DNA from: a virus
Taxonomy: Duplodnaviria > Caudoviricetes
Strand: one strand, 5' to 3'
Virus record (IMG/VR): IMGVR_UViG_3300045580_000181
Location: 1-30,811 of that record
DNA length: 30,811 nt
Position numbers and translations under genes: made by a program. Of the stretch, positions 5,846 through 26,062 are shown piece after piece; position 1 is the stretch's first letter, and each line of letters starts with the position of its first letter. A model generated the notes under the pieces. That model was not told the origin of the DNA, searched no databases, and saw only the letters and a list, made by a program, of their open reading frames with translations.

Positions 5846-8757
5846 TCCGTTGGCTCCGTGTACGGACCCGTCATCGTCGCAGCGTCCGCTTCCATGTCCT
5901 TGATGATCTGTTCGTAGTCGTCTACGAGGACCGGCTGCATCGAGCAGCGGCAGTTCGGGTGCAACGGCGGCCCGTCGACCGCCTCATAGTCGAGCGCCAG
6001 CTCCCCGCCGTCCGCGCCCGTGAGCGTCTGGCCCTGCTTGTAGAACGGCTCGTTGATGCCGACCGACTTCTGCCCGAACTGCTCGGACGCGGCCTGGCAA
6101 AACTCGCACGGGTCAGGCGCGAGCAGCCATTTCTTGCCCTCGACCAGACCCGTAGACTTCCACGCCTCGCTCTCGGCCTTGCGGGTAGCGCGCTGCGCCT
6201 CGGTGCGGGCGATGGTGATGGCCCTCGAGCGCGTCTGCCGCGCTGCGTCGCCCTTCTCGCCCGCCCATTCCTGCACGCGCGTGGCGAGTTCGGGGATAGT
6301 CTCGCCGCTCTGGATGCCGTCGCCCAGAATCTTGGAGACGCGGACGGAGGTGTACTGGTTGACCGAGCGCGCGCTGTTGCGGGCAAGGCGCACCGATTCC
6401 GACTCGACGTACGCGTCGAGGTTCGCCGTCTCTGGCGTGAAGTCGGGAAGCGCCGTCGCCAGGTTCTTGATGGTGTCCGTGCCGAGCGAGATGCCAGTCT
6501 TGAGGCTCGACTGCAGGTAGGGCCGAAGCGCCGCGACCAGCTCGCGGTCCCATCGCGCGCTCTTTAGCAACGACTCGACCTTGAGCGTGAGTTCGGCGCT
6601 AGGTGCGGTCGACGCGTTGAGTTCCTTGAGGACCGCCGAAATCTGGCGCTGCAGGACGCGGTCGACTGCGTTGCCGATGGCGCGCTCGTCTTCCGTGATC
6701 TCCTCGAACTCGTCGCCGGCATCTGGCTTCTTCGCGCGCGCCTTCGTGTGGATCTCGGGCAGCTGCTCGCCGTCCATAGACCAGAGCGCCTTCTGAGATA
6801 TGGACGCGCCAGACTCGCAGCCGCATCCGCAGCCCGACTTCACGCCGCGCGCGCGGTCGAACTCCTCGACTTTGCGGCGAGCCCATACCCAGCCCTCGTC
6901 GCCGCCCCAGCCGTACCAGGCTTGCCATCCCTTGCCCTGCTCGTCCCATGTCTGGCCCTGCTTGTCGACTTCGTGCCGCTCAAAGTACGCGGCCATGCGG
7001 CGGATCGTCTCCTCCGACAGATTCGCACGGTTCGCTAGGTCGCGCGCGCGCGCGATGCCGACTTCGGTCATGCCGCGCTGGCTGTCTGGCTTCTCGCTGC
7101 GGACCTCAAGCGCGCGCTGCGCGTTGCGGGCCACCGCCTCTGGCGGCTTCGTGTCGATGTCGGACACGGCCTTCGATCCTGCATCGCACATGGAAATCGC
7201 GATGGCGATCGCCTGGTCGCGCGGGTAGCCCTCGTCAAGAAGCTTCGGAATCTTCTCGGAGACGCAGTCGGCGGGGCTCGCCTTCTCGTCGATCGCGCCG
7301 AGCGTGAGCATCGCGTTCTGCCACGACTTCACGCCGACCTCCGCGACGGGCTCGTCCACGGGTGTCGTGGCCTCCCCGCCACCGTCCGGCCCGGCGGGGC
7401 CGGCGGGCGCGGACGGCGGCTCAGGGGAGAAGGACGGGACAGCCGGCGGCGGCGGGACGGGACCGCCGAGCGACTGGTTGTTGAAGAGCAGGGAATCCGC
7501 GTTGGGGTCATCGCTCGCGGCAAGCCCCTGCAGCTCGCGCGCTTCGTTGACGGTCATCATGCCAGCGGAGACGGCGGCGCGGACGCGCTCAAACTCAAAG
7601 CGCTCATCCTCGAGGACTGGATTGTCGTACGCAAGGAACGCGTCGTCCTCGATGCCGAAGAGCGGCAGGAGCGACTGATTCAGCGTCTCCTCGTCCATCC
7701 GCAGGAGCGGGAGGATCGTGTTCGACCGCCACGACGCAAAGCCGACCTGCGCGGACGCGAGGTTCGGGTCATTGGCCTTGAGCATCGAGACAGGCACGCC
7801 GAATACCGCGGCGATCTCCTCGATGATCTCCGTGCGGCCTGCCAGGTCCTTCGGCGGGAAGCCCATCGGCTTCAGATCGACATCGGACGACATCGTGAGG
7901 AAGCGGCCCGTACGCTTCTTGCCGCGCAGCTTCTCGTCAATCTGGACCTCGAGCCGCTCGATCTCGTTCGGATCGGCAACGCCCTTGAACGTCAGCAGGT
8001 AGTCGGGCCGCGCCTTGTTGGAGAAGAACGACAGGTCCATCTCATGGACGGCCTCGTTCTGCATCGCCGCGCCCCATGCCGCCTCGGCCTTGCCAAGCCC
8101 GTAGTACAGGTCGCCAGGGTTCGGCCGCCTAAAGTGAATCACTTCGTCGGCAGGGAAGAAGCGCCGCTGATCGCGGGTCGCGCCATAGAGATAGCCGTCG
8201 ATGAACTCGACCTTTCCCGGCACGATCTCGACCCATTGCGACGGCATGATCCAAAGAGACGAAGGGCGACCGAGCTGGCGGTCGATGACGGGATGGATAT
8301 ACGCGTTTCCCGTCAGCTCCGTATAGAGGATGCGGAGGATGGTCGCGTCGAAGCCGTTCTGGTACTGATTGAACTTGCTCAGTACCTCAAGCACGGGGTG
8401 CATCTCGGTGACGACCTCGTAGTCGTCGCCGTACTCCGCGGCCTTGGTCATCACCGTGCGCGACGGCTGCGCGGAGAGGTCGCCGGCTAGATAGGCCTTC
8501 GCCCTCATGCCAGGCGCGCGCGTGCGCCAAAGCGACTTGCGTCCGCCCTTCCTGACGTAGAGGCGAATCGGCTGCGATGCGACCGCGACCGCGTTGAGGT
8601 TCGCGGCTGCGTAGATCCATGATCGGTACGACGCGACGGCGGCGTGGTAGCTGAACGGCTGGCGCTTGCCTTCGTCGCCGTGGACAATCTGCATCGAGGT
8701 CTGCAGGAACTTGTCCTCGTTGAACGCGCGCTTGATTCGGTCGAGTAGTCGTCTCAT
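5842..8757 (-). CDS. Portal protein fused to extra domains and a Mu gpF/SPP1 gp7-like head morphogenesis domain (971 aa)
   Basis: Portal motifs ELTGNAY, EVIHFR, IAAVFGVP, TVNEARE; C-terminal RAITIARTE...KKW...CEFC...PPLHPNCRC. Confidence 0.9.
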   Translation of the reverse strand: MRRLLDRIKRAFNEDKFLQTSMQIVHGDEGKRQPFSYHAAVASYRSWIYAAANLNAVAVASQPIRLYVRKGGRKSLWRTRAPGMRAKAYLAGDLSAQPSRTVMTKAAEYGDDYEVVTEMHPVLEVLSKFNQYQNGFDATILRILYTELTGNAYIHPVIDRQLGRPSSLWIMPSQWVEIVPGKVEFIDGYLYGATRDQRRFFPADEVIHFRRPNPGDLYYGLGKAEAAWGAAMQNEAVHEMDLSFFSNKARPDYLLTFKGVADPNEIERLEVQIDEKLRGKKRTGRFLTMSSDVDLKPMGFPPKDLAGRTEIIEEIAAVFGVPVSMLKANDPNLASAQVGFASWRSNTILPLLRMDEETLNQSLLPLFGIEDDAFLAYDNPVLEDERFEFERVRAAVSAGMMTVNEARELQGLAASDDPNADSLLFNNQSLGGPVPPPPAVPSFSPEPPSAPAGPAGPDGGGEATTPVDEPVAEVGVKSWQNAMLTLGAIDEKASPADCVSEKIPKLLDEGYPRDQAIAIAISMCDAGSKAVSDIDTKPPEAVARNAQRALEVRSEKPDSQRGMTEVGIARARDLANRANLSEETIRRMAAYFERHEVDKQGQTWDEQGKGWQAWYGWGGDEGWVWARRKVEEFDRARGVKSGCGCGCESGASISQKALWSMDGEQLPEIHTKARAKKPDAGDEFEEITEDERAIGNAVDRVLQRQISAVLKELNASTAPSAELTLKVESLLKSARWDRELVAALRPYLQSSLKTGISLGTDTIKNLATALPDFTPETANLDAYVESESVRLARNSARSVNQYTSVRVSKILGDGIQSGETIPELATRVQEWAGEKGDAARQTRSRAITIARTEAQRATRKAESEAWKSTGLVEGKKWLLAPDPCEFCQAASEQFGQKSVGINEPFYKQGQTLTGADGGELALDYEAVDGPPLHPNCRCSMQPVLVDDYEQIIKDMEADAATMTGPYTEPTE

Positions 8758-17493: not shown

Positions 17494-17550
17494 GCCGCGA
17501 TCATCGGCAACGGCGGCCGATCTCCGCAGGGCGGCGCGTTTTATGGCGGG

Positions 17551-17585
17551 AAGAAAACAGGCGCGCCCCACAATGGAGCGCGCCC
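17551..17585 (-). terminator. Rho-independent terminator ending the early operon
   Basis: GGGCGCGCTCCA-TTG-TGGGGCGCGCCT followed by GTTTTCTT. Confidence 0.75.
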
Positions 17586-17606
17586 GCATGGGGAGAAAAG
17601 AGCTTG

Positions 17607-17768
17607 TTAGAACCAGCGCGCGAGCGCGCCGAAGGCGCTGCCGAGCAGCCAGGTCCAGAAGGCGATCGACCCTAGGATGGCCGCTACGACGATCGTGACG
17701 TAGACGAAGTTCCAGACCGCGTCCTGGGCGACTGCCTTGAATCCGTCCCGTGGTTCGTCCTCGATCAT
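17607..17768 (-). CDS. Small membrane protein (53 aa), absent from the ORF track
   Basis: ATGA overlap with the RusA stop, GGAGG RBS; MIEDEPRDGFKAVAQDAVWNFVYVTIVVAAILGSIAFWTWLLGSAFGALARWF. Confidence 0.7.
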   Translation of the reverse strand: MIEDEPRDGFKAVAQDAVWNFVYVTIVVAAILGSIAFWTWLLGSAFGALARWF

Positions 17769-18139
17769 GCGGTCCTCCGAATGGTGATCTCGACTCGCGG
17801 CCTGTCGCGGTCGATGGCCTGGCGCACCGGCAGGTACGTCAGCTGGCGGTCGTTGGAGACTAGCCCAGCATCGGCTATCCCGTCGAACGCTGCCTTGAGG
17901 GAGGCAAGCAGATTGTCCGCGTCCCGCCCGCGATTCATGGGGAACCAGAACGCGGCCTCGACCTCAGCGGCGGTCCATCCGCCGGCGACGGCTTGGGCCT
18001 GCATCTCAGCCGCGGTGTAGTAGTGCGCGACCTGCCTGTAGGTCCGCGTGGCGCGTGCCTTTACGCGCCAATGGGTACGGCCGTTCGGGGCGAGGCTGCG
18101 GTTGGGCAGCTGGAGGGTGATTCGGATGGACTCGCTCAC
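17765..18139 (-). CDS. rusA: RusA-like Holliday junction resolvase
   Basis: RDADNLLASLKAAFDGIADAGLVSND and RPRVEITI; GTGA start. Confidence 0.85.
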   Translation of the reverse strand: MSESIRITLQLPNRSLAPNGRTHWRVKARATRTYRQVAHYYTAAEMQAQAVAGGWTAAEVEAAFWFPMNRGRDADNLLASLKAAFDGIADAGLVSNDRQLTYLPVRQAIDRDRPRVEITIRRTA

Positions 18140-18471
18140 AGCGCCTCTGGCATGAAAGTTTCCCCAGCGGGCGTGTGTTTGCCGTCCGCTGGGGCGCGGG
18201 AACACCCCGCAAGTTCGTGTTGTAGCCGGTAGATCGTCTGACGCGCCTCTGCGGCTTCCCTCATGGCCTCGTCGCGCTCGGCGGTGAGGCGGGCGACCTC
18301 GCGCTGCGCGTCTAGCGCCTCCGCGCAGAACTGCGTCGTGCCTTGCTTCCGAGCGCAGCCCGTGTTCCGCCGAAGCCGCTCGATCTCATCGGCGGCCTCG
18401 CGGTTCATCAGTTCGACGCTACGGTCGTTGTGCAGGACGGCGCGGAGTCTCGTCACGATGTCGTCGCTCAC
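18136..18471 (-). CDS. Hypothetical coiled-coil protein (SDDIV/EAADEIERLR family)
   Basis: GTGA overlap, GGAGG RBS; paralogous to 18468-18782. Confidence 0.7.
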   Translation of the reverse strand: MSDDIVTRLRAVLHNDRSVELMNREAADEIERLRRNTGCARKQGTTQFCAEALDAQREVARLTAERDEAMREAAEARQTIYRLQHELAGCSRAPADGKHTPAGETFMPEAL

Positions 18472-18782
18472 TTGCCGTCCTCCTTGTAGCAGTCCCACCC
18501 GCGTTCTTCTGCATATATGCGAAGCGCAAGTTGAATGACCTCATCATCTTGCGGGCACGGTTGGCGGTTACGTCTACACAACTCTCGCCTTGCCTCGTCT
18601 CGCTCGTCGGTGAGGGCATGAATCCGCTCCCACAGTTCCGCCATGATCCCGTCCTGATCCTGAATCCTGCGTTGAGTGCCTAACGCTTGCACGCGCAGCC
18701 GTTCGATCTCGTCGGCGGCTTCACGGACCATAGGCCATGCTGACGGAATCTGACGCAGCCGCTTCACGATGTCGTCGCTCAC
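18468..18782 (-). CDS. Hypothetical coiled-coil protein (SDDIV/EAADEIERLR family)
   Basis: SDDIVKRLR...EAADEIERLR...ERDEARR...RGWDC. Confidence 0.7.
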   Translation of the reverse strand: MSDDIVKRLRQIPSAWPMVREAADEIERLRVQALGTQRRIQDQDGIMAELWERIHALTDERDEARRELCRRNRQPCPQDDEVIQLALRIYAEERGWDCYKEDGK

Positions 18783-18955
18783 TTTCGGCCTCCCGTCAGT
18801 TGAACGAGCTGCGCCTTGAGTTCCGCGAGTCGGCGGCGGTCGTCCTTCATGGACTTCTCGAGCCGCTGGATCTCTGCGCGCACGGTCGCCTCGGTGACAT
18901 GGTTGCGGATGCTCGAGCGCCAGGGATGGCCCGACGCGGGACGGGTGGCGGTCAT
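18779..18955 (-). CDS. Small coiled-coil hypothetical protein (58 aa)
   Basis: ATGA overlap, GGAGG RBS; MTATRPASGHPWRSS... Confidence 0.65.
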   Translation of the reverse strand: MTATRPASGHPWRSSIRNHVTEATVRAEIQRLEKSMKDDRRRLAELKAQLVQLTGGRK

Positions 18956-19194
18956 CGCCTGACCTCCGCGATCTGGTCGAGCAGTCGCCGGCACGCGCCA
19001 GGCGACAGCGCCGTCTTGCCCGTGTGGCAAAGCGACAGGTACGTCGGGGAAAGCCCGATGGCCCGTGCGAGGGCGCGCAGGGACCGTTCGCCCTTGGCTG
19101 CGTCGATGATGGCGCGCGACCTGCGCGCGAGCATCGTGTGCGCCGTGTCGGCCGCGTCGAGCGCGGCGCGGATCTCCGTTGGGTCGATCCTCAT
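18952..19194 (-). CDS. XRE/Cro-type HTH DNA-binding protein
   Basis: SLRALARAIGLSPTYLSLCHTGK. Confidence 0.8.
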   Translation of the reverse strand: MRIDPTEIRAALDAADTAHTMLARRSRAIIDAAKGERSLRALARAIGLSPTYLSLCHTGKTALSPGACRRLLDQIAEVRR

Positions 19195-19580
19195 GGCTGC
19201 GGCTCCCAGCTGTTGAGCAGACGGACGAGGTCTTCCGCATCGCGGCGGTCCAACTGGAACTCCAGCCGGTGCGGCGTGTACGGGTTGTCCCCTTGCTGGC
19301 GGACAAACACGCCGTCGTCGCGCATCGGGTTCGGGTAGGTCGCCCAGGTGATGCCGTGCCGGAACATGGGCCGAGCCATCGCGGCTAGCCATTGCATCCG
19401 ATACCGCTCGGCCTGCGTCTCGAGCGAGCAGGTCGCCCGTAGCACGGTGATCTCGGTATCCGCGCGCTCGAGCGCGTTCGCGGCATCCTCGATCGCTTCC
19501 ATGAGCATTCCCTTGGGCAGTCCCTTGCCGTCGATCGCCTCGCGCAGCGCGGCTATGAGTTCCTTGCGTGTCCGTTCCAT
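19191..19580 (-). CDS. Hypothetical protein (129 aa)
   Basis: AGGAG RBS before MERTRKEL. Confidence 0.7.
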   Translation of the reverse strand: MERTRKELIAALREAIDGKGLPKGMLMEAIEDAANALERADTEITVLRATCSLETQAERYRMQWLAAMARPMFRHGITWATYPNPMRDDGVFVRQQGDNPYTPHRLEFQLDRRDAEDLVRLLNSWEPQP

Positions 19581-19594
19581 CGCGTGTCTCCTGT

Positions 19595-19888
19595 TCAGGT
19601 TGCACGGCAGACCATCTGCTGCCGTCCGTTCGGTCCTAGCCGCGTCTCGCCTGTCGGGGCGATCCTGCGCGCGGCGCGCAGGTCGCTGCATCGTTTCCAG
19701 AATCCAGACGCAGTCAGCCCTGCGCGAACCGCGGCCTCGTAGTCGGTCAGGCCAGACGAGCCGGCGCGCTGGAACTCCTCCAGCAAGCGATCGCAGTCGG
19801 AGTGCCATCGGAACTTGGACTGCCGCGCCGCCGACTTGCTCGTCTCTGGGTCGGTTGCGCGCGCCTGGAACAGCGGTAGCTCGTTCAA
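19595..19888 (-). CDS. Winged-HTH-like protein
   Basis: TTGA overlap start; ARATDPETSK.AA...GLTDYE...WKRCSDL...TGETR. Confidence 0.7.
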   Translation of the reverse strand: MNELPLFQARATDPETSKSAARQSKFRWHSDCDRLLEEFQRAGSSGLTDYEAAVRAGLTASGFWKRCSDLRAARRIAPTGETRLGPNGRQQMVCRAT

Positions 19889-20157
19889 TCCTGCCTCCGT
19901 TCGATGCGGATCGCGCGGTCGAGCGAGAGGCACAGACGCACCTTCGCGTGGTTCGGAACGTGTTCTACCGCGACGTAGCCGAGGTCGACCCCGTCGCGCG
20001 TGAGCCAGATTCGGTCGCCCATTCGGCAGGACCGCATCACGGTTCCCCGCGGGGAGAGGTGCAGGTCGGACTGCACCTCCCCCGCGGCTGGGGAGACACC
20101 CGCGTCGTGCGGGGCCAGTTCTCCCGATTGTATCGCTTCCATGCGTTTGCCTTTCAC
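19885..20157 (-). CDS. Divergent CsrA/RsmA-like RNA-binding protein
   Basis: TVMRSCRMGDRIWL...YVAVEHV...KVRLCLSLDRAIRIER aligns by eye with CsrA MLILTRRVGETLMI...VTVTVLGV...QVRIGVNAPKEVSVHR. Start at GTG 20157 or ATG 20142. Confidence 0.55.
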   Translation of the reverse strand: MKGKRMEAIQSGELAPHDAGVSPAAGEVQSDLHLSPRGTVMRSCRMGDRIWLTRDGVDLGYVAVEHVPNHAKVRLCLSLDRAIRIERRQD

Positions 20158-20675
20158 TTGATCGAGATGCGTGTGCCGCGCTCCATGAGCGTTGCGAACT
20201 CCAGCTGCTCGCCGGCCTCCAGGCGAGCGCGGATCGCGTCCTTGTCTGGGTAGACGAGGGTTTCGCGCTTGACCGCCCAGACCGGCATGGACTCGATGTC
20301 GCCGTGGATGTCGAGCGGAGCCTTGCCGCCGTTCCTGGCGAGCGAGAAGCGGAAGTTCGGCGTGTCGACCTTTCCGAGCGCGCGCGCCTCCCAGAGCAGC
20401 CGCAGGCGCTCGCGCAGGTTCTCCGCGGCGGTCGCGTCGGCCTTCGCCAGCGCGGCGATGCGCTTGGCCTCGTCGGCGCGGGCCTTGCTGCGGGCCTCTA
20501 GTTCGTAAATAAGCCGCGCGTAGTTCTCAAGCTTGCCGTGGAGGTCGCCTTGAATCTCAGCCTCCCAGGCGGTGATGGCCTGGTCGACCTGCGGCGTGAT
20601 CTCGCCGCCTGATTCCCAAAGCAGCGACTCGAGCGCGGCCATGTCGGCCGAGATGTCCCAGATGGTTCGCGTCAC
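20154..20675 (-). CDS. Siphovirus Gp157 family protein
   Basis: TIWDISAD...KLENYARLI...EAKRI...ARNGGK...PDKDAIR..L.AG...ISIK. Confidence 0.85.
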   Translation of the reverse strand: MTRTIWDISADMAALESLLWESGGEITPQVDQAITAWEAEIQGDLHGKLENYARLIYELEARSKARADEAKRIAALAKADATAAENLRERLRLLWEARALGKVDTPNFRFSLARNGGKAPLDIHGDIESMPVWAVKRETLVYPDKDAIRARLEAGEQLEFATLMERGTRISIK

Positions 20676-21157
20676 GACCGTGCCTCCGTGTAGTAGTAGC
20701 CGACCTCGACCTGGTCGAGCGGCAGGACTTTCTGGATGTACGCGACGCGGCCTTCGTGGGTGATCCACACAGAGCCGTCGTCGTCCTCGCTGATGAGTTG
20801 GAAGTTCTCTCCGCGCAGCGCGTCCTCCGCGAGTTCCTGCGTTGCGAAGGTCTTGACCGGCCCGTCGATGATCGCGTCGTTCAGCGGGTCGCAGATGTCG
20901 GTTCCGTCAGGCGGCAGGCGGTGCGCCAGCATCAGGCCCTGCTCGCCGGCGAACGCGCAGACGCGCGAGGTCGGCGCTTTGCCTCCGATCGACTCGATGT
21001 ACTCGACCGCGACGTATCCGCGCTGCGGTAGCTCCGCGCGCAGCCGGCGCGCGACCTCCCCGAGCTGGGAGACGGCGGCGGTTCCCCAGGTTCCCGAGGA
21101 ACCGAACGGCGACCAACAGCAGACGGTCCAGCGGATCCATTTGAACTTCAGCGTCAT
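20672..21157 (-). CDS. Hypothetical protein (161 aa)
   Basis: GGAGGT RBS; overlaps at both ends. Confidence 0.65.
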   Translation of the reverse strand: MTLKFKWIRWTVCCWSPFGSSGTWGTAAVSQLGEVARRLRAELPQRGYVAVEYIESIGGKAPTSRVCAFAGEQGLMLAHRLPPDGTDICDPLNDAIIDGPVKTFATQELAEDALRGENFQLISEDDDGSVWITHEGRVAYIQKVLPLDQVEVGYYYTEARS

Positions 21158-21270
21158 GCCGCACCTCCGCGGCAGACGGCCGTCGTCGGCAGCTTCGTGG
21201 TGATTCGGACACGCGGCGGCAGGTAGAGCGATGCCGCTACGACGGCGACGATGAGGAGGAGCTGCGTCAA
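21154..21270 (-). CDS. Small hydrophobic peptide (38 aa), absent from the ORF track
   Basis: TTG start with GGAGGT RBS; exactly bridges two overlaps; MTQLLLIVAVVAASLYLPPRVRITTKLPTTAVCRGGAA. Confidence 0.6.
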   Translation of the reverse strand: MTQLLLIVAVVAASLYLPPRVRITTKLPTTAVCRGGAA

Positions 21271-21578
21271 GCCGCACCTCCGATCTGCTCGTCGCGGTAG
21301 TTGCAGCCGACGCGGGCCGACTCGTCGCGGATCGCGTCGAGGTCGATGCCGTCGATGAGCGCCTTGACCGCATCGCGGTTCTCGCGGCGCATCACGCGGG
21401 CGAACGCCTGGAGCATGGTTCGGGCCTCGATGAAGTCGCTAGGCGCGCCGTCGTGGGCATCGCAAACGCGGTCGATGATCTCCGCGCGGATATGCATGGG
21501 AAGTCCTTCGCAGGCTTCGATGCGGTCAAGCGCCGCACAGAATGTCGGGAACCGTCGCGTTTCGTTCTGGTTGCTCAT
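21267..21578 (-). CDS. Hypothetical protein (103 aa), first gene of an early operon
   Basis: ACGGAG RBS before MSNQNE. Confidence 0.7.
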   Translation of the reverse strand: MSNQNETRRFPTFCAALDRIEACEGLPMHIRAEIIDRVCDAHDGAPSDFIEARTMLQAFARVMRRENRDAVKALIDGIDLDAIRDESARVGCNYRDEQIGGAA

Positions 21579-21593
21579 TGCTGTCTCCGTTCT

Positions 21594-21608
21594 GCGGCAT
21601 CTTGCCGC
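21594..21608 (-). promoter_or_regulatory. Leader hairpin variant GCGGC-AAGAT-GCCGC upstream of the RBS
   Basis: Same stem and downstream AGAACGGAGAC as the 22306 copy. Confidence 0.6.
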
Positions 21609-21619
21609 GGTTGATGCGA

Positions 21620-21649
21620 AGAGTGTAGCAAACACTCTACAGGCTGCAA
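21620..21649 (-). promoter_or_regulatory. Sigma70-like promoter with overlapping palindromic operator
   Basis: TTGCAG-N16-TACACT with extended TG; inverted repeat AGAGTGT-N5-ACACTCT at 21620-21638. Confidence 0.6.
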
Positions 21650-21746
21650 CAGGGTTCGGCGGGATTCCGTCCCGATTTCAGAGATTATTTCGGACGCTAG
21701 CAAATCGCCCCAGGAGCCCCGTAGGGCCGCCCGACGCTGGCAGCCC

Positions 21747-22289
21747 CTATCGGGCAGCCACGCGCCCAGAGCCCCGCAGCGGGGCGCAGCGCGCCCAGAA
21801 CGCCCTAGCCGTCAGCCCGTCGATCCCGCGGTCGGCAACGATGTCGGAAACGGCTAGAACCCAGCTGTGCGGCCACCCGTCGATCGGACCCTCGGGACGC
21901 ACCCAGCCGGCAGCCTGAAGCGACGAGATAGCCGCCTCGCGCGTCTCGTCGTCGGCATCGCGGATCTCCTGGCGAAGGCGCGACCATTCAAGCGCCGTCA
22001 CGATCCTCTGCTCGCTCGCCGTCATCGTCGTCTCCAGTCGCGCCGCTAGGCGCTCGGCATCCAAACGCTGCTCGCGCGCGATCCGCGCGTACTCGAGGAA
22101 CCGCGCCGGCAGGAAGCGTCCCGTCTCGCCGCCGTAGTCGAGCGCGTACGCGTCGAGCGCCGTCATGCAGTCCCGCGCGTCAAGCGCCGCGATGGCGCGC
22201 CGCGCCAGCGCAAACAGCTCCTCGTCCATCGGGCCGCGGAACATCCTGCGCGCCCGTCCGATGAAACCAGCCAACTCCGTCGAGTCCAT
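21747..22289 (-). CDS. Hypothetical helical protein (180 aa), possibly replication-associated
   Basis: Strong RBS; N-term loosely resembles helicase-loader-like domains, but this is uncertain. Confidence 0.6.
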   Translation of the reverse strand: MDSTELAGFIGRARRMFRGPMDEELFALARRAIAALDARDCMTALDAYALDYGGETGRFLPARFLEYARIAREQRLDAERLAARLETTMTASEQRIVTALEWSRLRQEIRDADDETREAAISSLQAAGWVRPEGPIDGWPHSWVLAVSDIVADRGIDGLTARAFWARCAPLRGSGRVAAR

Positions 22290-22305
22290 TCGCGTCTCCG
22301 TTCTC

Positions 22306-22324
22306 GCGGCTCCGTGCCGCGTTC
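22306..22324 (-). repeat. 19-bp leader repeat copy 1 (GAAC-GCGGC-ACGGA-GCCGC)
   Basis: Identical to 24391-24409; hairpin with an ACGGA loop just upstream of the SD. Confidence 0.85.
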
Positions 22325-22667
22325 AGCGGACACTATACCGCTTCGCAAGTCGCGCGTCCAACAGAGCGCCCGTCAACGTCGCGCCGTCTGGCCGGCTGAT
22401 CTCCGCGAGCATCCGCCCGTACTTGTCGTCCTTGGTCGTGCGCGCGACCAGATCCCCGTCCGAAGCCTCGAGCCATCCGCGCACGAAATCGCGCGCCGCC
22501 TTAGCGCGTTCCTTCTCGCCCTTCTCCTTGCTTGCCATCTCCGCGGTGTCGATGCCGATGAGGCGAACGCGCGTCTTGATCCTGATCGAGAAGCCGAGGT
22601 CGAGGACCAGGTCGAGCGTGTCGCCGTCGACGACCTTCACGACCTGAGAGACTGCATATTCAAACAT
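22323..22667 (-). CDS. Thermonuclease (SNase-like) family nuclease
   Basis: MFEY...VVKVVDGDT.D..LDLGF...RVRLIGIDTAE...DKYGRMLA; no signal peptide. Confidence 0.9.
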   Translation of the reverse strand: MFEYAVSQVVKVVDGDTLDLVLDLGFSIRIKTRVRLIGIDTAEMASKEKGEKERAKAARDFVRGWLEASDGDLVARTTKDDKYGRMLAEISRPDGATLTGALLDARLAKRYSVR

Positions 22668-22807
22668 ATTCTCCTCCTCCTCCTGCACGGGTTGCATCCG
22701 TATCGGATCGACCCTTCGCGCGCGCGCGCGTGTCGTGCAAATCACGGTTAGAGCAACCGAGCCATCTCACGCCAACCGTTCAGGAGGAGGAGAAAAGGTT
22801 TGATATG
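22655..22807. repeat. Long imperfect inverted repeat covering the nuclease RBS and start codon
   Basis: 22655-22694 catattcaaacatattctcctcctcctcctgcacgggttg versus the reverse complement of 22773-22807, catatcaaaccttttctcctcctcctgaacggttg. Confidence 0.85.
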
Positions 22808-22863
22808 GAGGGGAGTACCGAACCAGCAAGCGCGTAGTTGGAACGCAGGGCTCAGGTGGGGGG

Positions 22864-22894
22864 ATTCTAAAGGGGGGAGGGGATGGTTCGTCAA
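22864..22894 (-). promoter_or_regulatory. Possible sigma70-like promoter
   Basis: TTGACG-N19-TAGAAT immediately after a terminator; the spacer is longer than optimal. Confidence 0.4.
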
Positions 22895-22916
22895 GCGGAA
22901 AAATCCTCCGATTCCG

Positions 22917-22951
22917 AAAAAGAACGCGACCCCGCGTTTCCGCAGGGCCGC
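22917..22951 (-). terminator. Rho-independent terminator
   Basis: GCGGCCCTGCG-GAAA-CGCGGGGTCGC followed by GTTCTTTTT. Confidence 0.8.
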
Positions 22952-22977
22952 GCCTCCGACGCAGGGAACATCCCTGC

Positions 22978-23340
22978 TCAGTACCGATCGGCTGCGCGCA
23001 GAAGCAGCACTAGCCGGATGGCTCGCGCCACCAGGTCGAACCGCGTCTGCTGGTCCGCAAGCTCCCACGCCAGCTCCCGCCGCTCGACGATCCCAACCGA
23101 GCAGGACAGCCGCTCACCGATCGCCTCGCGCGTCGGCCGCAGATGGCCTGGCATCAGGTCAAGGACGATCCCGACGAGCGCCGCCTGTCGGAACGCGCCG
23201 ACGCTCGCGTCCCTCGAGACGATGCGCGCCGCGTCCACGGCTTCCCCCAGGCTGACGGCGCGGAACACCTCCGCGTCGTCAGCCGCGATCCCGACCTGCC
23301 AGCGGACGGCCGCCGACCCTGCCTCATGGTCGCGGTTCAT
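22978..23340 (-). CDS. Hypothetical protein (120 aa)
   Basis: ATGA overlap with bet; GGAGG RBS. Confidence 0.65.
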   Translation of the reverse strand: MNRDHEAGSAAVRWQVGIAADDAEVFRAVSLGEAVDAARIVSRDASVGAFRQAALVGIVLDLMPGHLRPTREAIGERLSCSVGIVERRELAWELADQQTRFDLVARAIRLVLLLRAADRY

Positions 23341-24290
23341 GACCGGCCCTCCGCGATGATCTCGCGCGCGATCCGCTTCCCGCCGACGACCTCGATACGG
23401 ACGAGGCTTGAGATGCGGAAGGCGATGTTCGCTTCCAGCTGCGAGGCAAGCCGCGAATCCGTGACCGCGATCGGCTGCGGGCAGTTCGGGCAGTCGAGCC
23501 GCCAGACCGTCCCGCCCTTCTTGCCGGCGACCTGCGCGACCGCGCAGTCGGGCGGGATCCAGACCTGATCCTCTGCCGTGACCTCAGGAGCGGCCGCAGC
23601 CGCCGCTACGGGCGTAGGCGACAGCAGGCTGTCTAGATCGGCCTTCCGCTCCGCTTGGCTCTGCGGAGCCTCCACGGTCGCGGGAAGGGCCGCTGGGGCC
23701 GCCTTGGGCGCGGGCGCGGCCTCGGGAGCCGTCTCGGCCTGGGCCATCTCCTCGGCCGTGTACAGGCCTGACAACTCCGCGGGGAAGGCCTTGCGGAGCG
23801 CCAGCGCTTCGGCGCACTTGGCGAGCATCAGGCTCGGCATCTTGGCCCACATGGGAAGTGGCTGGCCGGTCTTGTTGTTCCGCGGGCAATACTCCCGCCA
23901 GAGCGCCGTCGCGTAGAGCGGCTCCGCGAAGCCGCGACGGTAGCAGCCGACCCGCGCCGCCGCTGGCGGATCGTCCGACAGCCAGATGTCGCGCCACACG
24001 CCGTCCGCGGCGCACCAGGTGACGGCCGTCTGCCCTGCGTATTCGCCCGACCGCTGCGCGACAAGGCGCGCGCCGTCGATCGAAACCTGAGGCTGACGGA
24101 CCTCCATCCCGAGCTTCGCGTCCCAGCGCGGGACGAGGTAAATCTGGCGGGCGAACGGGTCGAGCCCCGTGCGGTCGCAGATGGCAACGAACAGAGCGAG
24201 TTCGTCGCGCGATGCGCCCTTGGCGATTGTGCGGGTCAGAAGGTCGACCCGCTCAGGCGACAGGCTCTGCCGTGCGAGTTCGGTAGTCAT
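23337..24290 (-). CDS. bet: Bet/RecT-family single-strand annealing recombinase
   Basis: GLDPFARQIY, SIDGARLVAQRSGEYAG, W.KMP..MLAKCAEALALRKAFP.ELSGLYT.EEM; start MTTELARQ. Confidence 0.92.
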   Translation of the reverse strand: MTTELARQSLSPERVDLLTRTIAKGASRDELALFVAICDRTGLDPFARQIYLVPRWDAKLGMEVRQPQVSIDGARLVAQRSGEYAGQTAVTWCAADGVWRDIWLSDDPPAAARVGCYRRGFAEPLYATALWREYCPRNNKTGQPLPMWAKMPSLMLAKCAEALALRKAFPAELSGLYTAEEMAQAETAPEAAPAPKAAPAALPATVEAPQSQAERKADLDSLLSPTPVAAAAAAPEVTAEDQVWIPPDCAVAQVAGKKGGTVWRLDCPNCPQPIAVTDSRLASQLEANIAFRISSLVRIEVVGGKRIAREIIAEGRS

Positions 24291-24373
24291 CGCGCCCCCT
24301 TGTCGTCGAAGAGCGGCCAGAAAGCCGCGGCGAGAATGAAGGCGACGAAAGCGATCGTCACTACGATGTCCAT
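24287..24373 (-). CDS. 28-aa single-TM peptide, absent from the ORF track
   Basis: AGGAG RBS; MDIVVTIAFVAFILAAAFWPLFDDKGAR; stop overlaps the bet ATG. Confidence 0.7.
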   Translation of the reverse strand: MDIVVTIAFVAFILAAAFWPLFDDKGAR

Positions 24374-24390
24374 GCGTGTCTCCTAGTTCT

Positions 24391-24409
24391 GCGGCTCCGT
24401 GCCGCGTTC
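24391..24409 (-). repeat. 19-bp leader repeat copy 2
   Basis: Identical to 22306-22324. Confidence 0.85.
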
Positions 24410-24414
24410 CGTAA

Positions 24415-24705
24415 ATGGTAATCGGTATTCCGCCCGTGCGCCTACAGGAAAATCCGAAAAATCTCCACCCGAGCCTCAAATCCCGCAGGGTCAGGGCGTT
24501 TCTTCTGCGGACGAGGGCCGCCGTTCGGCGCACGGACGCGCCGTTCGGCGGTTCCCGCAGGCCGGCAGAGCGCGCGGAACTTGAGCGCCACGACCTCGAC
24601 CTGCTGGACCTGCTGACGCTCGCGCTCGACACCGCCGAGGACCACGACCTCCAGATCCTCATCAGCTACGCGCGAACGAGCCTGATCCTCTCGCTCACGC
24701 GATGA
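24415..24705 (+). CDS. Possible sole plus-strand gene (helical hypothetical); start uncertain
   Basis: Fills the gap between minus-strand operons; the 3' half has strongly GC3-biased codons (LERHDLDLLDLLTLALDTAEDHDLQILISYAR). Confidence 0.45.
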   Translation: MVIGIPPVRLQENPKNLHPSLKSRRVRAFLLRTRAAVRRTDAPFGGSRRPAERAELERHDLDLLDLLTLALDTAEDHDLQILISYARTSLILSLTR

Positions 24706-26062
24706 GGGTGTCTGCGATCGTCTCGCCGCCGAGGTAGTTCTGCGGCAGGCTCAGACCCTTCCCGTACATATCGAAGAGCCTGTCGAACGCGCGGACGAAC
24801 GCGCCCTCGTTGTTGTTGGAGAACTTCCGCAGCAAGCGGTCCTCGACGATGTAGTTCGTGGAGCCAGCGATGATCGACAGAGCCTGACCGCCTGGCGCGA
24901 TGGGTTTCATCTCGCACACGACGACCTCGTCGATGTAGACGGCCGCGGTTCCGATTCCCGTCGTCGCCTCGACCACGATGTAGGACGCAGCCGGCAGCAC
25001 CTTCGGAGAGCGGACGGTCGTCGAGTACAGCGCCCAGCTCGTCGTCAGGTCGCTCGCCACGGTCAGCGCCTTGGTCAGACTGCCGACGACGTTGTTGGAC
25101 GCGTCCTTGATCGAGACGCGGATAGCGCCCGTCGCGGACGCGTCCTTCTTCGCGGCGAAGACGAGCGCGTAGGGCCGATCGGGCTGGATCGTGCCGAGCG
25201 AACCGCTTGGGCTACCGAGCTGCTGGCGGATGCGCCAGGTGGTCGAGGTCGCCGGAGCCTTGAGGCATGACGCGCCGCGGTAGTAGGTTCCCGTCTCCGC
25301 AAGGAAGTCGGTTCCCGCCGTGCCGCTGACTACCGACCATTGATCGGGAACGTTGCTCGTCCAGTCCTCGAGGTCCGTGTTCGTGCCGATGTTCGCGTAC
25401 TGCGTGCCGTAGTCGATGCCGGCGGTTGCGCTTGCGAGCGTCATCTGCGCGCCCGATCCCGCGGGGAATCGCCAGTCGAGCCCGCCATAGGCGGCGGTTC
25501 CCGTGATGCGGAACAGCTCCGAGCCCGCGGTGAGCGCGCCGTCCTGCGCGTCCTGGATGCATTGCGCGACGAGGAGGTCGGTACGGATGTTGGGCCAGTC
25601 GTTGGTTGAGCCGAGCAGGACGTTCGGGGCTTCGTTCAGGAACAGCATCGTTCCGTTTCCCGTGCCGCTCGTACCAAGCACCCCGCCGGCGACCGTCGTT
25701 CCCTCGACCGAGTTGGAGGTCGCGTCCATGTCGCGGATGAGGTAGACCAGCGCGTCCTCGATCGCCTTGGTCCGCATCGTTCGGCTGCTGCTCGTCTGCG
25801 CGTCGACCCAGAGCATTTCCACCAGCGTCTTGACCGCCGCGGCCTGCACGTCGAGCAGCGCGTTCCCCGCTTCGGCCTGCCGCTGCTCGATGTTGCCCGA
25901 GAGCTGGTCGATCATGTAGCGGTCGGCCGCGCTGTACTCGCCCTGCACGTTGTCGAACAGCGTCTTGAGGTTGTTCTGGTGCGTGCGGATCGCGTCCATC
26001 ATGTAGATGAGCGCGCCGAGGCGGGTGAACAGACCGTTGGTTCCCGTGTAGGTGATCGCCAT
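24695..26062 (-). CDS. Virion structural protein with a carbohydrate-binding-like C-terminal domain (455 aa)
   Basis: NTDLEDWT..VPDQW...IRQQL...YIDEVVV jelly-roll pattern; last gene of the tail operon. Confidence 0.65.
   Translation of the reverse strand: MAITYTGTNGLFTRLGALIYMMDAIRTHQNNLKTLFDNVQGEYSAADRYMIDQLSGNIEQRQAEAGNALLDVQAAAVKTLVEMLWVDAQTSSSRTMRTKAIEDALVYLIRDMDATSNSVEGTTVAGGVLGTSGTGNGTMLFLNEAPNVLLGSTNDWPNIRTDLLVAQCIQDAQDGALTAGSELFRITGTAAYGGLDWRFPAGSGAQMTLASATAGIDYGTQYANIGTNTDLEDWTSNVPDQWSVVSGTAGTDFLAETGTYYRGASCLKAPATSTTWRIRQQLGSPSGSLGTIQPDRPYALVFAAKKDASATGAIRVSIKDASNNVVGSLTKALTVASDLTTSWALYSTTVRSPKVLPAASYIVVEATTGIGTAAVYIDEVVVCEMKPIAPGGQALSIIAGSTNYIVEDRLLRKFSNNNEGAFVRAFDRLFDMYGKGLSLPQNYLGGETIADTLIA

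Follow-up and report, generated by a model that had tools for sequence, protein, structure and literature searches.

A divergent CsrA homologue and conserved leader hairpins in the early region of a tailed phage

The csrA-like gene and its own leader

The DNA analysed here (the window) is the whole of IMG/VR record IMGVR_UViG_3300045580_000181, 30811 bases of a tailed phage, 99% complete, in which Pfam and PHROG matches identify genes for terminase, portal, major capsid protein, Bet/RecT, Gp157 and RusA. The early genes under study lie on the minus strand. They include a small csrA-like open reading frame (ORF) at 19885-20157, and they are accompanied by three early leaders in which a short hairpin sits between a -10-like hexamer and a GGAGAC followed by a start codon. 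An earlier note on this DNA had proposed that the ORF encodes a CsrA-like regulator and that this protein, or the CsrA of the host, switches early units off through hairpin loops containing GGA.

The CsrA-like character of the ORF is borne out: on the minus strand it encodes five predicted strands and no C-terminal helix, and its Arg87 aligns with Arg44 of CsrA. The gene most likely occupies 19885..20142 (minus strand), with a product of 85 amino acids (aa) from the ATG at 20142, the other possible starts being GTG 20157 (90 aa), GTG 20040 (51 aa) and ATG 20037 (50 aa); the CsrA-like core lies at 19888-20043 (minus strand). Numbered in the 90-aa form, Arg42 stands at the Leu4 position of CsrA, Asp80 at the Pro of the F-P-R-E motif in the relative P0028, and Arg87 at the Arg44 position in beta5.

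The evidence for homology runs largely through relatives. An iterated search collected 26 proteins at E up to 0.1, of which the weakest, P0028, bears the Pfam CsrA domain PF02599 (curated cut-off, 27 bits). The comparison with CsrA profiles that the earlier note had suggested came out divided: hhalign of the family profile against P0028 supported homology (probability 96.5%, E 7e-10, with P0028 itself recruited by the same profile), whereas the window protein had no Pfam match of its own. A profile built from three more canonical CsrA sequences picked out the window ORF as its top non-self match among 4012 frames (E 0.031). Distant relatives carry syntenic genes downstream of Gp157 whose products are 38% identical to the window protein, and two of these score 19.4-19.5 bits against Pfam CsrA (E 0.001), which is under the cut-off. 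PF02599 was matched at E up to 0.1 by 5/21 family rows, and the Joint Genome Institute names four of the 12 members of one cluster CsrA. An 18-row alignment has Arg at the Leu4 position in 17/17 family rows and Arg at the Arg44 position in 14/17, the window included; hydrophobic residues stand at the Arg6 position, and Asp takes the place of the F-P-R-E Pro in 15/17. Judging from these alignments, ORF 19885-20157 is a divergent phage CsrA homologue that falls outside the Pfam family cut-off.

An AlphaFold model of 63 aa places predicted strands at residues 11-17, 22-27, 30-36, 46-52 and 56-60 (mean predicted local distance difference test score 73), and a second model has the same five strands following the extension; neither contains a helix. 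The window protein ends three residues past the Arg44 position, and helix H1 of CsrA is missing. Foldseek searches with the monomer models gave no match at E up to 0.001 and listed no CsrA, and a wide structure search with the monomer model reached a best Z of 4.0, again with no CsrA listed; these results are uninformative, because the CsrA dimer is strand-swapped. Solved structures, searched by sequence with the family profile, yielded 0 matches at E up to 1. In the ESM Atlas, the third match was a cluster in which 11% of the members are CsrA (score 0.85), which serves as a lead only, and the relative P0011 had no usable match. The protein tree of the family contained no strongly supported branch.

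The earlier note had also described an N-terminal extension of the protein. The extension does precede the core, but DNA alignment reveals its homology with what lies ahead of the csrA-like gene in relatives; by this comparison it was originally the gene's promoter-leader and turned into coding sequence through a fusion. Along the minus strand it holds a -10-like hexamer TACAAT (20127..20132), a leader hairpin CCCGC-ACGAC-GCGGG (20099..20113), a GTCTCC (20092..20097) complementary to the GGAGAC of the early leaders, and a long GC-rich hairpin (20047..20087) that is conserved in position and variable in sequence among relatives. The order in relatives is -10-like box, short hairpin, GTCTC, long variable hairpin, ribosome-binding site (RBS) and start. 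The first three of these elements lie upstream of the csrA-like gene in 22/22 loci with a family gene, the box reading TAnnnT and the GTCTC being invariant; the hairpin loop is A-N-G-A-Y in relatives, with ACGGAA in one. A downstream partner for GTCTC, either GAGAC or GAGGC, is present in 20/22 loci and is predicted to lock the RBS of the gene itself. The two loci without a cis partner are the window and L046, where the reading frame, having lost its RBS and start, is now fused to an ATG further upstream that has a purine-rich site of its own, which makes the 85-aa form the likeliest product; both retain the hairpins, with differing stems. In the relatives inspected, the upstream gene reads through the own-leader element and has its stop on the csrA-like start, and therefore translational coupling would open the element.

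Early leaders and their conservation

All three early leaders are on the minus strand. Early leader 1 (24373..24420) consists of TACCAT at 24415-24420, a hairpin at 24391-24405 with loop ACGGA, GGAGAC at 24378-24383 and the start of a gene for a 28-aa peptide. Early leader 2 (22289..22337) has TATAGT at 22332-22337, a hairpin at 22305-22321 with loop ACGGA, GGAGAC at 22294-22299 and the start of a conserved 180-aa gene. Early leader 3 (21578..21627) has an extended -10-like element TG-C-TACACT (hexamer 21622-21627), a hairpin at 21594-21608 with loop AAGAT, and GGAGAC at 21583-21588. Their hairpins have the form GCGGC-N5-GCCGC and, in the ACGGA copies, end 5-7 nucleotides (nt) ahead of GGAGAC. 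The two GCGGC-ACGGA-GCCGC hairpins that the earlier note had placed near GGAGAC are indeed there, at 24391-24405 and 22306-22320, while its inventory had missed the third copy of the stem (AAGAT, 21594-21608) and a fourth hairpin, the ACGAC one at 20099-20113 in the leader of the csrA-like gene.

The window taken alone is weak evidence, because its three copies of GCGGC-N5-GCCGC, against a chance mean of 0.70, are equalled or exceeded in 7/100 shuffles. Among 18 aligned leaders, the stem has double changes in 6/6 pairs and 25 cells, a result obtained in 0/500 shuffles, with 1-4 cells in slid controls; the pair closing the stem under the loop is C-G in 17/18. A loop-blind scan of 12 loci found 27 distinct hairpins ahead of GAGAC and a start, with loops fitting the relaxed pattern A(N)NGA(X) in 19/27 (background 81/3141) and the canonical A(N)GGA(X) in 10/27 (background 22/3141). 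A loop-open scan of IMG/VR returned 40 stretches, 10 from known contigs and 30 from 28 new ones. Where the new contig carried a window-related gene (16 contigs), A-N-G-R-H fitted 23/23 matches, six of them with GGA; in the 12 new contigs that had no such gene it fitted 2/12. Over 35 loci, the C-G-closed pentaloops ahead of GAGAC (n = 74) have A at position 1 in 68/74, G at position 3 in 72/74, a purine at position 4 in 71/74 and never G at position 5, and the loop consensus across related phages is A-N-G-R-H (or AGGA). GAGAC follows motif-loop hairpins ahead of ATG in 78/83 cases, compared with 15/378 for other loops; GGAG is found with 44/83 motif-loop hairpins overall and in 3/3 window leaders.

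GGA is present in 34/78 loops of related loci and absent from 44/78, it occurs in two of the four window hairpins, and orthologous leaders with an identical stem alternate between ACGGA and ACGAA. The loops are not conserved as ANGGA, contrary to what the earlier note had expected, and strict GGA dependence is rejected on the grounds of this switching and of the 34/78 count. The loops AGGA, AAGGA, ACGGA, ATGGA, AGGAT, AGGAA and AGGAC stand in the canonical register. By contrast, ACGAT, ACGAC, ACGAA, ATGAA, ATGAC, AAGAT and similar loops fit only on the assumption of a free first G (A-N-G-A-X), and three rare loops, ACGGT, AGGGT and AAGGT, match neither A-N-G-A-X nor A-N-G-G-A.

As for the surroundings of the hairpins, TAnnnT lies 7-13 nt upstream of the stem in 14/20 leaders (background 3%) and 24 nt upstream in one leader with a tandem hairpin. 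The leader hairpins are not among the four terminator-like sites of the early region; they are followed by purine-rich linkers and lack a U-tract. An Rfam search of window 17500-25000 gave two matches (E 1.2 and 2.1), both scoring far under the gathering cut-offs. A GGAGAC leader at window 19580-19625 (minus strand) has a different, 7-base-pair (bp) hairpin with an 8-nt loop containing AGAT and is possibly a decayed copy. In L014 (2950-2980) and L019 (6068-6095), a strong GC-rich hairpin without a U-tract, a possible terminator or processing site, lies between early genes directly ahead of a leader copy that lacks a -10 box. One and the same leader precedes unrelated downstream genes in close relatives (window 21578 versus L002; L014 3033 versus L003), which suggests gene swapping at the leader. 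The related phage L056 combines a more canonical CsrA gene (7708-7908) with ACGAT leaders and is without the own-leader motif.

The earlier note had counted a further hairpin, with an ACGGAC loop at 24517..24552, as a member of the regulon. It is stable (folding z -3.8), but we reject it as a CsrA target and place it outside the conserved system: the loop is on the plus strand, opposite the early genes, inside the coding sequence of ORF 24415-24705, and it is present in three close relatives, whereas its sequence recurs in none of the six distant loci, although the protein is found in 6/6. ORF 24415-24705 itself (plus strand), divergent from leader 1, is a small conserved gene whose product has a Leu/Asp-rich C-terminal part in all nine relatives shown.

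Downstream of leader 1, the gene for the 28-aa hydrophobic peptide (24287..24373, minus strand) is followed by the Bet/RecT single-strand annealing protein gene (23337..24290, minus strand; family match). The stop of the former and the start of the latter overlap as ATGA, so that coupling from the peptide to bet is possible on this arrangement; bet is also preceded by a purine-rich stretch of its own. The Gp157 (Mu Gam-like) gene (20154..20675, minus strand; family match) lies immediately upstream of the csrA-like gene. Elsewhere in the early region (22660-22803 and 22864-22894, minus strand), a staphylococcal-nuclease-family gene (22323-22667), which is absent from the close relative L001, has a further promoter-like site TTGACG-19 nt-TAGAAT upstream, and its purine-rich RBS and start have a 22-nt complement ~100 nt upstream that would lock the gene. 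Two adjacent genes (18139-18498 and 18468-18782, minus strand) have a duplicated N-terminal module in common (direct repeats D1, D14 and D16), and the early region of relatives includes a destabilase-family (i-type lysozyme-like) gene above the Pfam cut-off (L014 3251-3652). Searches of annotated GenBank phages gave no match, and no prophage with the 180-aa protein encoded downstream of leader 2 was found. A 10-kb contig assigned to a Terrimicrobiaceae bin carries one close relative; because the 8 kb examined contain apparent phage genes only, this contig may be mis-binned. The CsrA of that bin itself is of the flagellar-operon kind.

A proposed phage-encoded reader and its rivals

On balance, the homology, the covarying stems, the loop consensus, the position of the hairpins between a -10-like box and a start codon, and their recurrence ahead of the csrA-like gene, all shown by sequence comparison, incline us towards a phage CsrA variant of relaxed specificity that would repress early translation and regulate its own synthesis. 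The CsrA homologue would bind C-[A-N-G-R-H]-G hairpins at the starts of early messages as a dimer, with one face on the loop and the other on the GAGAC/ribosome-binding stretch, in the manner of CsrA dimers, which are described as binding hairpin loops and a nearby RBS and so blocking initiation (PMC7366521, PMC6546359). As the protein accumulates, translation of the early recombination and replication genes would be lowered, and the hairpin in its own leader would let it limit its own synthesis. The relaxed specificity would lie in a rebuilt pocket for the first G of GGA, which would be left free, so that loops of the form A-N-G-A-X or A-N-G-G-A could be read. For canonical CsrA, the core A(N)GGAX bases are stated to be non-substitutable, while AGGGA and AAGGA pentaloops bind well (Duss et al., PMC4005645). 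In the structure of RsmN with RNA, the first G is described as buried against Leu6 (PMC3791407), a residue that would occupy the CsrA Leu4 position given the two-residue offset to RsmE; since the phage family has Arg there without exception, we infer that a Leu4-to-Arg change rebuilt the pocket, just as RNA binding, dimer formation and repression over activation are inferred.

Several points weigh against this reading. For the window protein itself, neither PHROG nor Pfam gave a match, the latter at E limits of 1 and of 10; P0028 alone, among the family members seen, is above the PF02599 cut-off; and the Arg44 position is lost in 3/17 members. The relaxed pattern A(N)NGA(X) was chosen after such loops had been seen, a -10 box is absent near 5/20 leader copies, and the leader and genome counts come from related sequences and so are not independent. 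Co-occurrence, which the earlier note had proposed to check, is found in most relatives: the csrA-like gene was detected in 9/16 new related contigs within the stretch examined, in one case as the more canonical type. For the remaining seven, whole records searched with positive controls gave nothing better than E 0.069, and we did not take the weak match in G003 (E 0.069-0.11) for a homologue. Four of these seven are uninformative, because the leader points to the contig end within 1.7 kb. In G002 (99% complete), G007 (91%) and G003 (81%), each with one leader, the csrA-like gene was not detected and the own-leader motif is absent, which also counts against a phage-encoded reader. Genomes with the gene have several leaders per 5-13 kb (a single leader in one genome), whereas the gene-less whole records have one each, which speaks in favour of the phage-encoded reader.

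Those three records favour a rival in which a host RNA-binding protein, either an unusual host CsrA or another protein, would read the hairpins while the phage protein competed with it or acted on host messages. L056 points the same way, with its more canonical CsrA alongside ACGAT leaders, and a host-directed action of phage CsrA has been put forward (PMC11879866). Canonical CsrA, however, is reported to require A(N)GGA(X), with core bases not open to substitution (PMC4005645), and GGA is lacking in most of the loops; the canonical host CsrA that the earlier note had entertained as a reader is therefore unlikely. The same hairpin stands in the csrA-like gene's own leader at all 22 loci, and loop type is grouped by phage genome: GGA versus non-GGA loops are concordant in 63/89 within-genome pairs, compared with 43.6 in shuffles (p 0.001; 13 genomes, 51 loops). 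A host reader of some kind appears fairly unlikely to us. The grouping by genome fits a phage-encoded reader and also the copying of a cassette, which also makes loops alike within one genome and in that respect speaks against the reading we favour. If the leader were a mobile promoter-leader cassette, the hairpin would shield the 5' end or keep the RBS open in GC-rich RNA, and its loop would go unread and be alike by copying. Identical leaders ahead of unrelated genes in close relatives, resembling T4-type PeSL cassettes (PMC2839356), and hairpins only a few bases past the likely start site agree with this. Yet the stems change on both sides while A1, G3 and purine 4 of the loop are retained, some copies have no -10 box, and the hairpin of the csrA-like leader, with other stems and flanks, is left unexplained; we regard the cassette as unlikely.

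The invariant GTCTC raises another prospect, namely that a transcript of the csrA-like gene from an internal promoter serves as a small RNA, with the CsrA-like dimer joining both hairpins and GTCTC-GAGAC pairing blocking initiation in trans. GTCTC is kept even in loci that offer only GAGGC as a cis partner (10/22) or none at all (2/22, window included), GAGAC is far more constant after the hairpins than GGAG is, and CsrA promotes pairing between a small RNA and its messenger RNA in B. subtilis (PMC6546359). Against it, the complementarity extends over just 5-8 bp, cognate pairs show no significant gain in pairing over swapped ones (p 0.087, 13 genomes), and cis pairing with the RBS of the gene itself accounts for GTCTC in 20/22 loci; we take such trans pairing to be improbable. 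An orthogonal phage CsrA circuit would join the two ideas, its rebuilt first-G pocket reading A-N-G-R-H loops that host CsrA ignores and its own-leader small RNA landing GTCTC on the GAGAC of every early RBS with the dimer as matchmaker; we hold this combination to be quite unlikely. The boxB site of phage lambda has a 5-bp stem and a pentaloop. By analogy, the 5-bp stem and pentaloop behind the early promoters could be a boxB-like antitermination site, terminator-like hairpins being present in the early region, or else a palindromic DNA operator. The short fixed spacing to GAGAC and the start codon indicates translation instead, and a single DNA operator is hard to reconcile with stems that differ inside one genome around a strand-specific centre; either role seems highly improbable.

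Relation to known CsrA systems

Phage csrA genes are already known, and RsmQ is reportedly a plasmid-borne csrA homologue. A survey found csrA in 30/2517 phage genomes (PMC7366521), and knockdown of the phage csrA PTXU04_00028 led to smaller plaques (PMC11879866). What the present phages add is a relaxed loop code that is matched by a change in the protein, together with the invariant GAGAC and the motif in the gene's own leader. Within the largely open-access literature searched, supplements aside, we met no account of a phage CsrA that targets early leaders of a phage or of a CsrA code other than GGA, and none on Planctomycetes with a phage CsrA on early leaders. The GGA specificity of CsrA is described as set by backbone contacts (PMC4005645); if the proposal is true, a CsrA family whose targets lack the first G and whose protein has a matching residue change would allow a direct test of the fixed-GGA rule. 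It would also offer a ready orthogonal translational repressor, and it would give phage csrA genes, whose role is described as largely untested (PMC11879866), concrete targets in the phage's own early messages.

Compared with CsrA/RsmA/RsmE as described for PF02599 (PMC4005645, PMC7366521), the phage system has the five-strand pattern, Arg44, short C-G-closed stems, purine-rich loops starting with A and a site adjoining the RBS in common. It differs in its protein, which scores below the Pfam cut-off, carries Arg in place of Leu4, is hydrophobic at the Arg6 position and, in the window, lacks the C-terminal helix, and in its targets, more than half of which have loops without GGA, with an invariant GAGAC downstream of the hairpin. 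The CsrA orthologue RsmN of Pseudomonas aeruginosa is likewise described as lacking the C-terminal helix and still binding hairpins, as the phage protein would; unlike the latter, for which no helix is predicted, RsmN has an internal helix and GGA specificity (PMC3791407). The early leaders resemble T4-type PeSL cassettes in being repeated early promoter cassettes with stem-loops and exchanged downstream genes, but the PeSL stem-loops are given as terminators (PMC2839356), whereas the hairpins here are in the leader, lack a U-tract and have a conserved loop. CsrA-promoted pairing of SR1 and ahrC in B. subtilis (PMC6546359), the model for pairing in trans, is a host system with GGA sites in which binding was shown, whereas the pairing here is hypothetical. 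As with the phage and plasmid csrA alleles (PMC7366521, PMC11879866), a csrA homologue is carried on a mobile element; those phage alleles were found by their likeness to E. coli CsrA, and the available text names no phage-borne targets for them, whereas in the present phages matched leaders and an own-leader motif accompany the gene.

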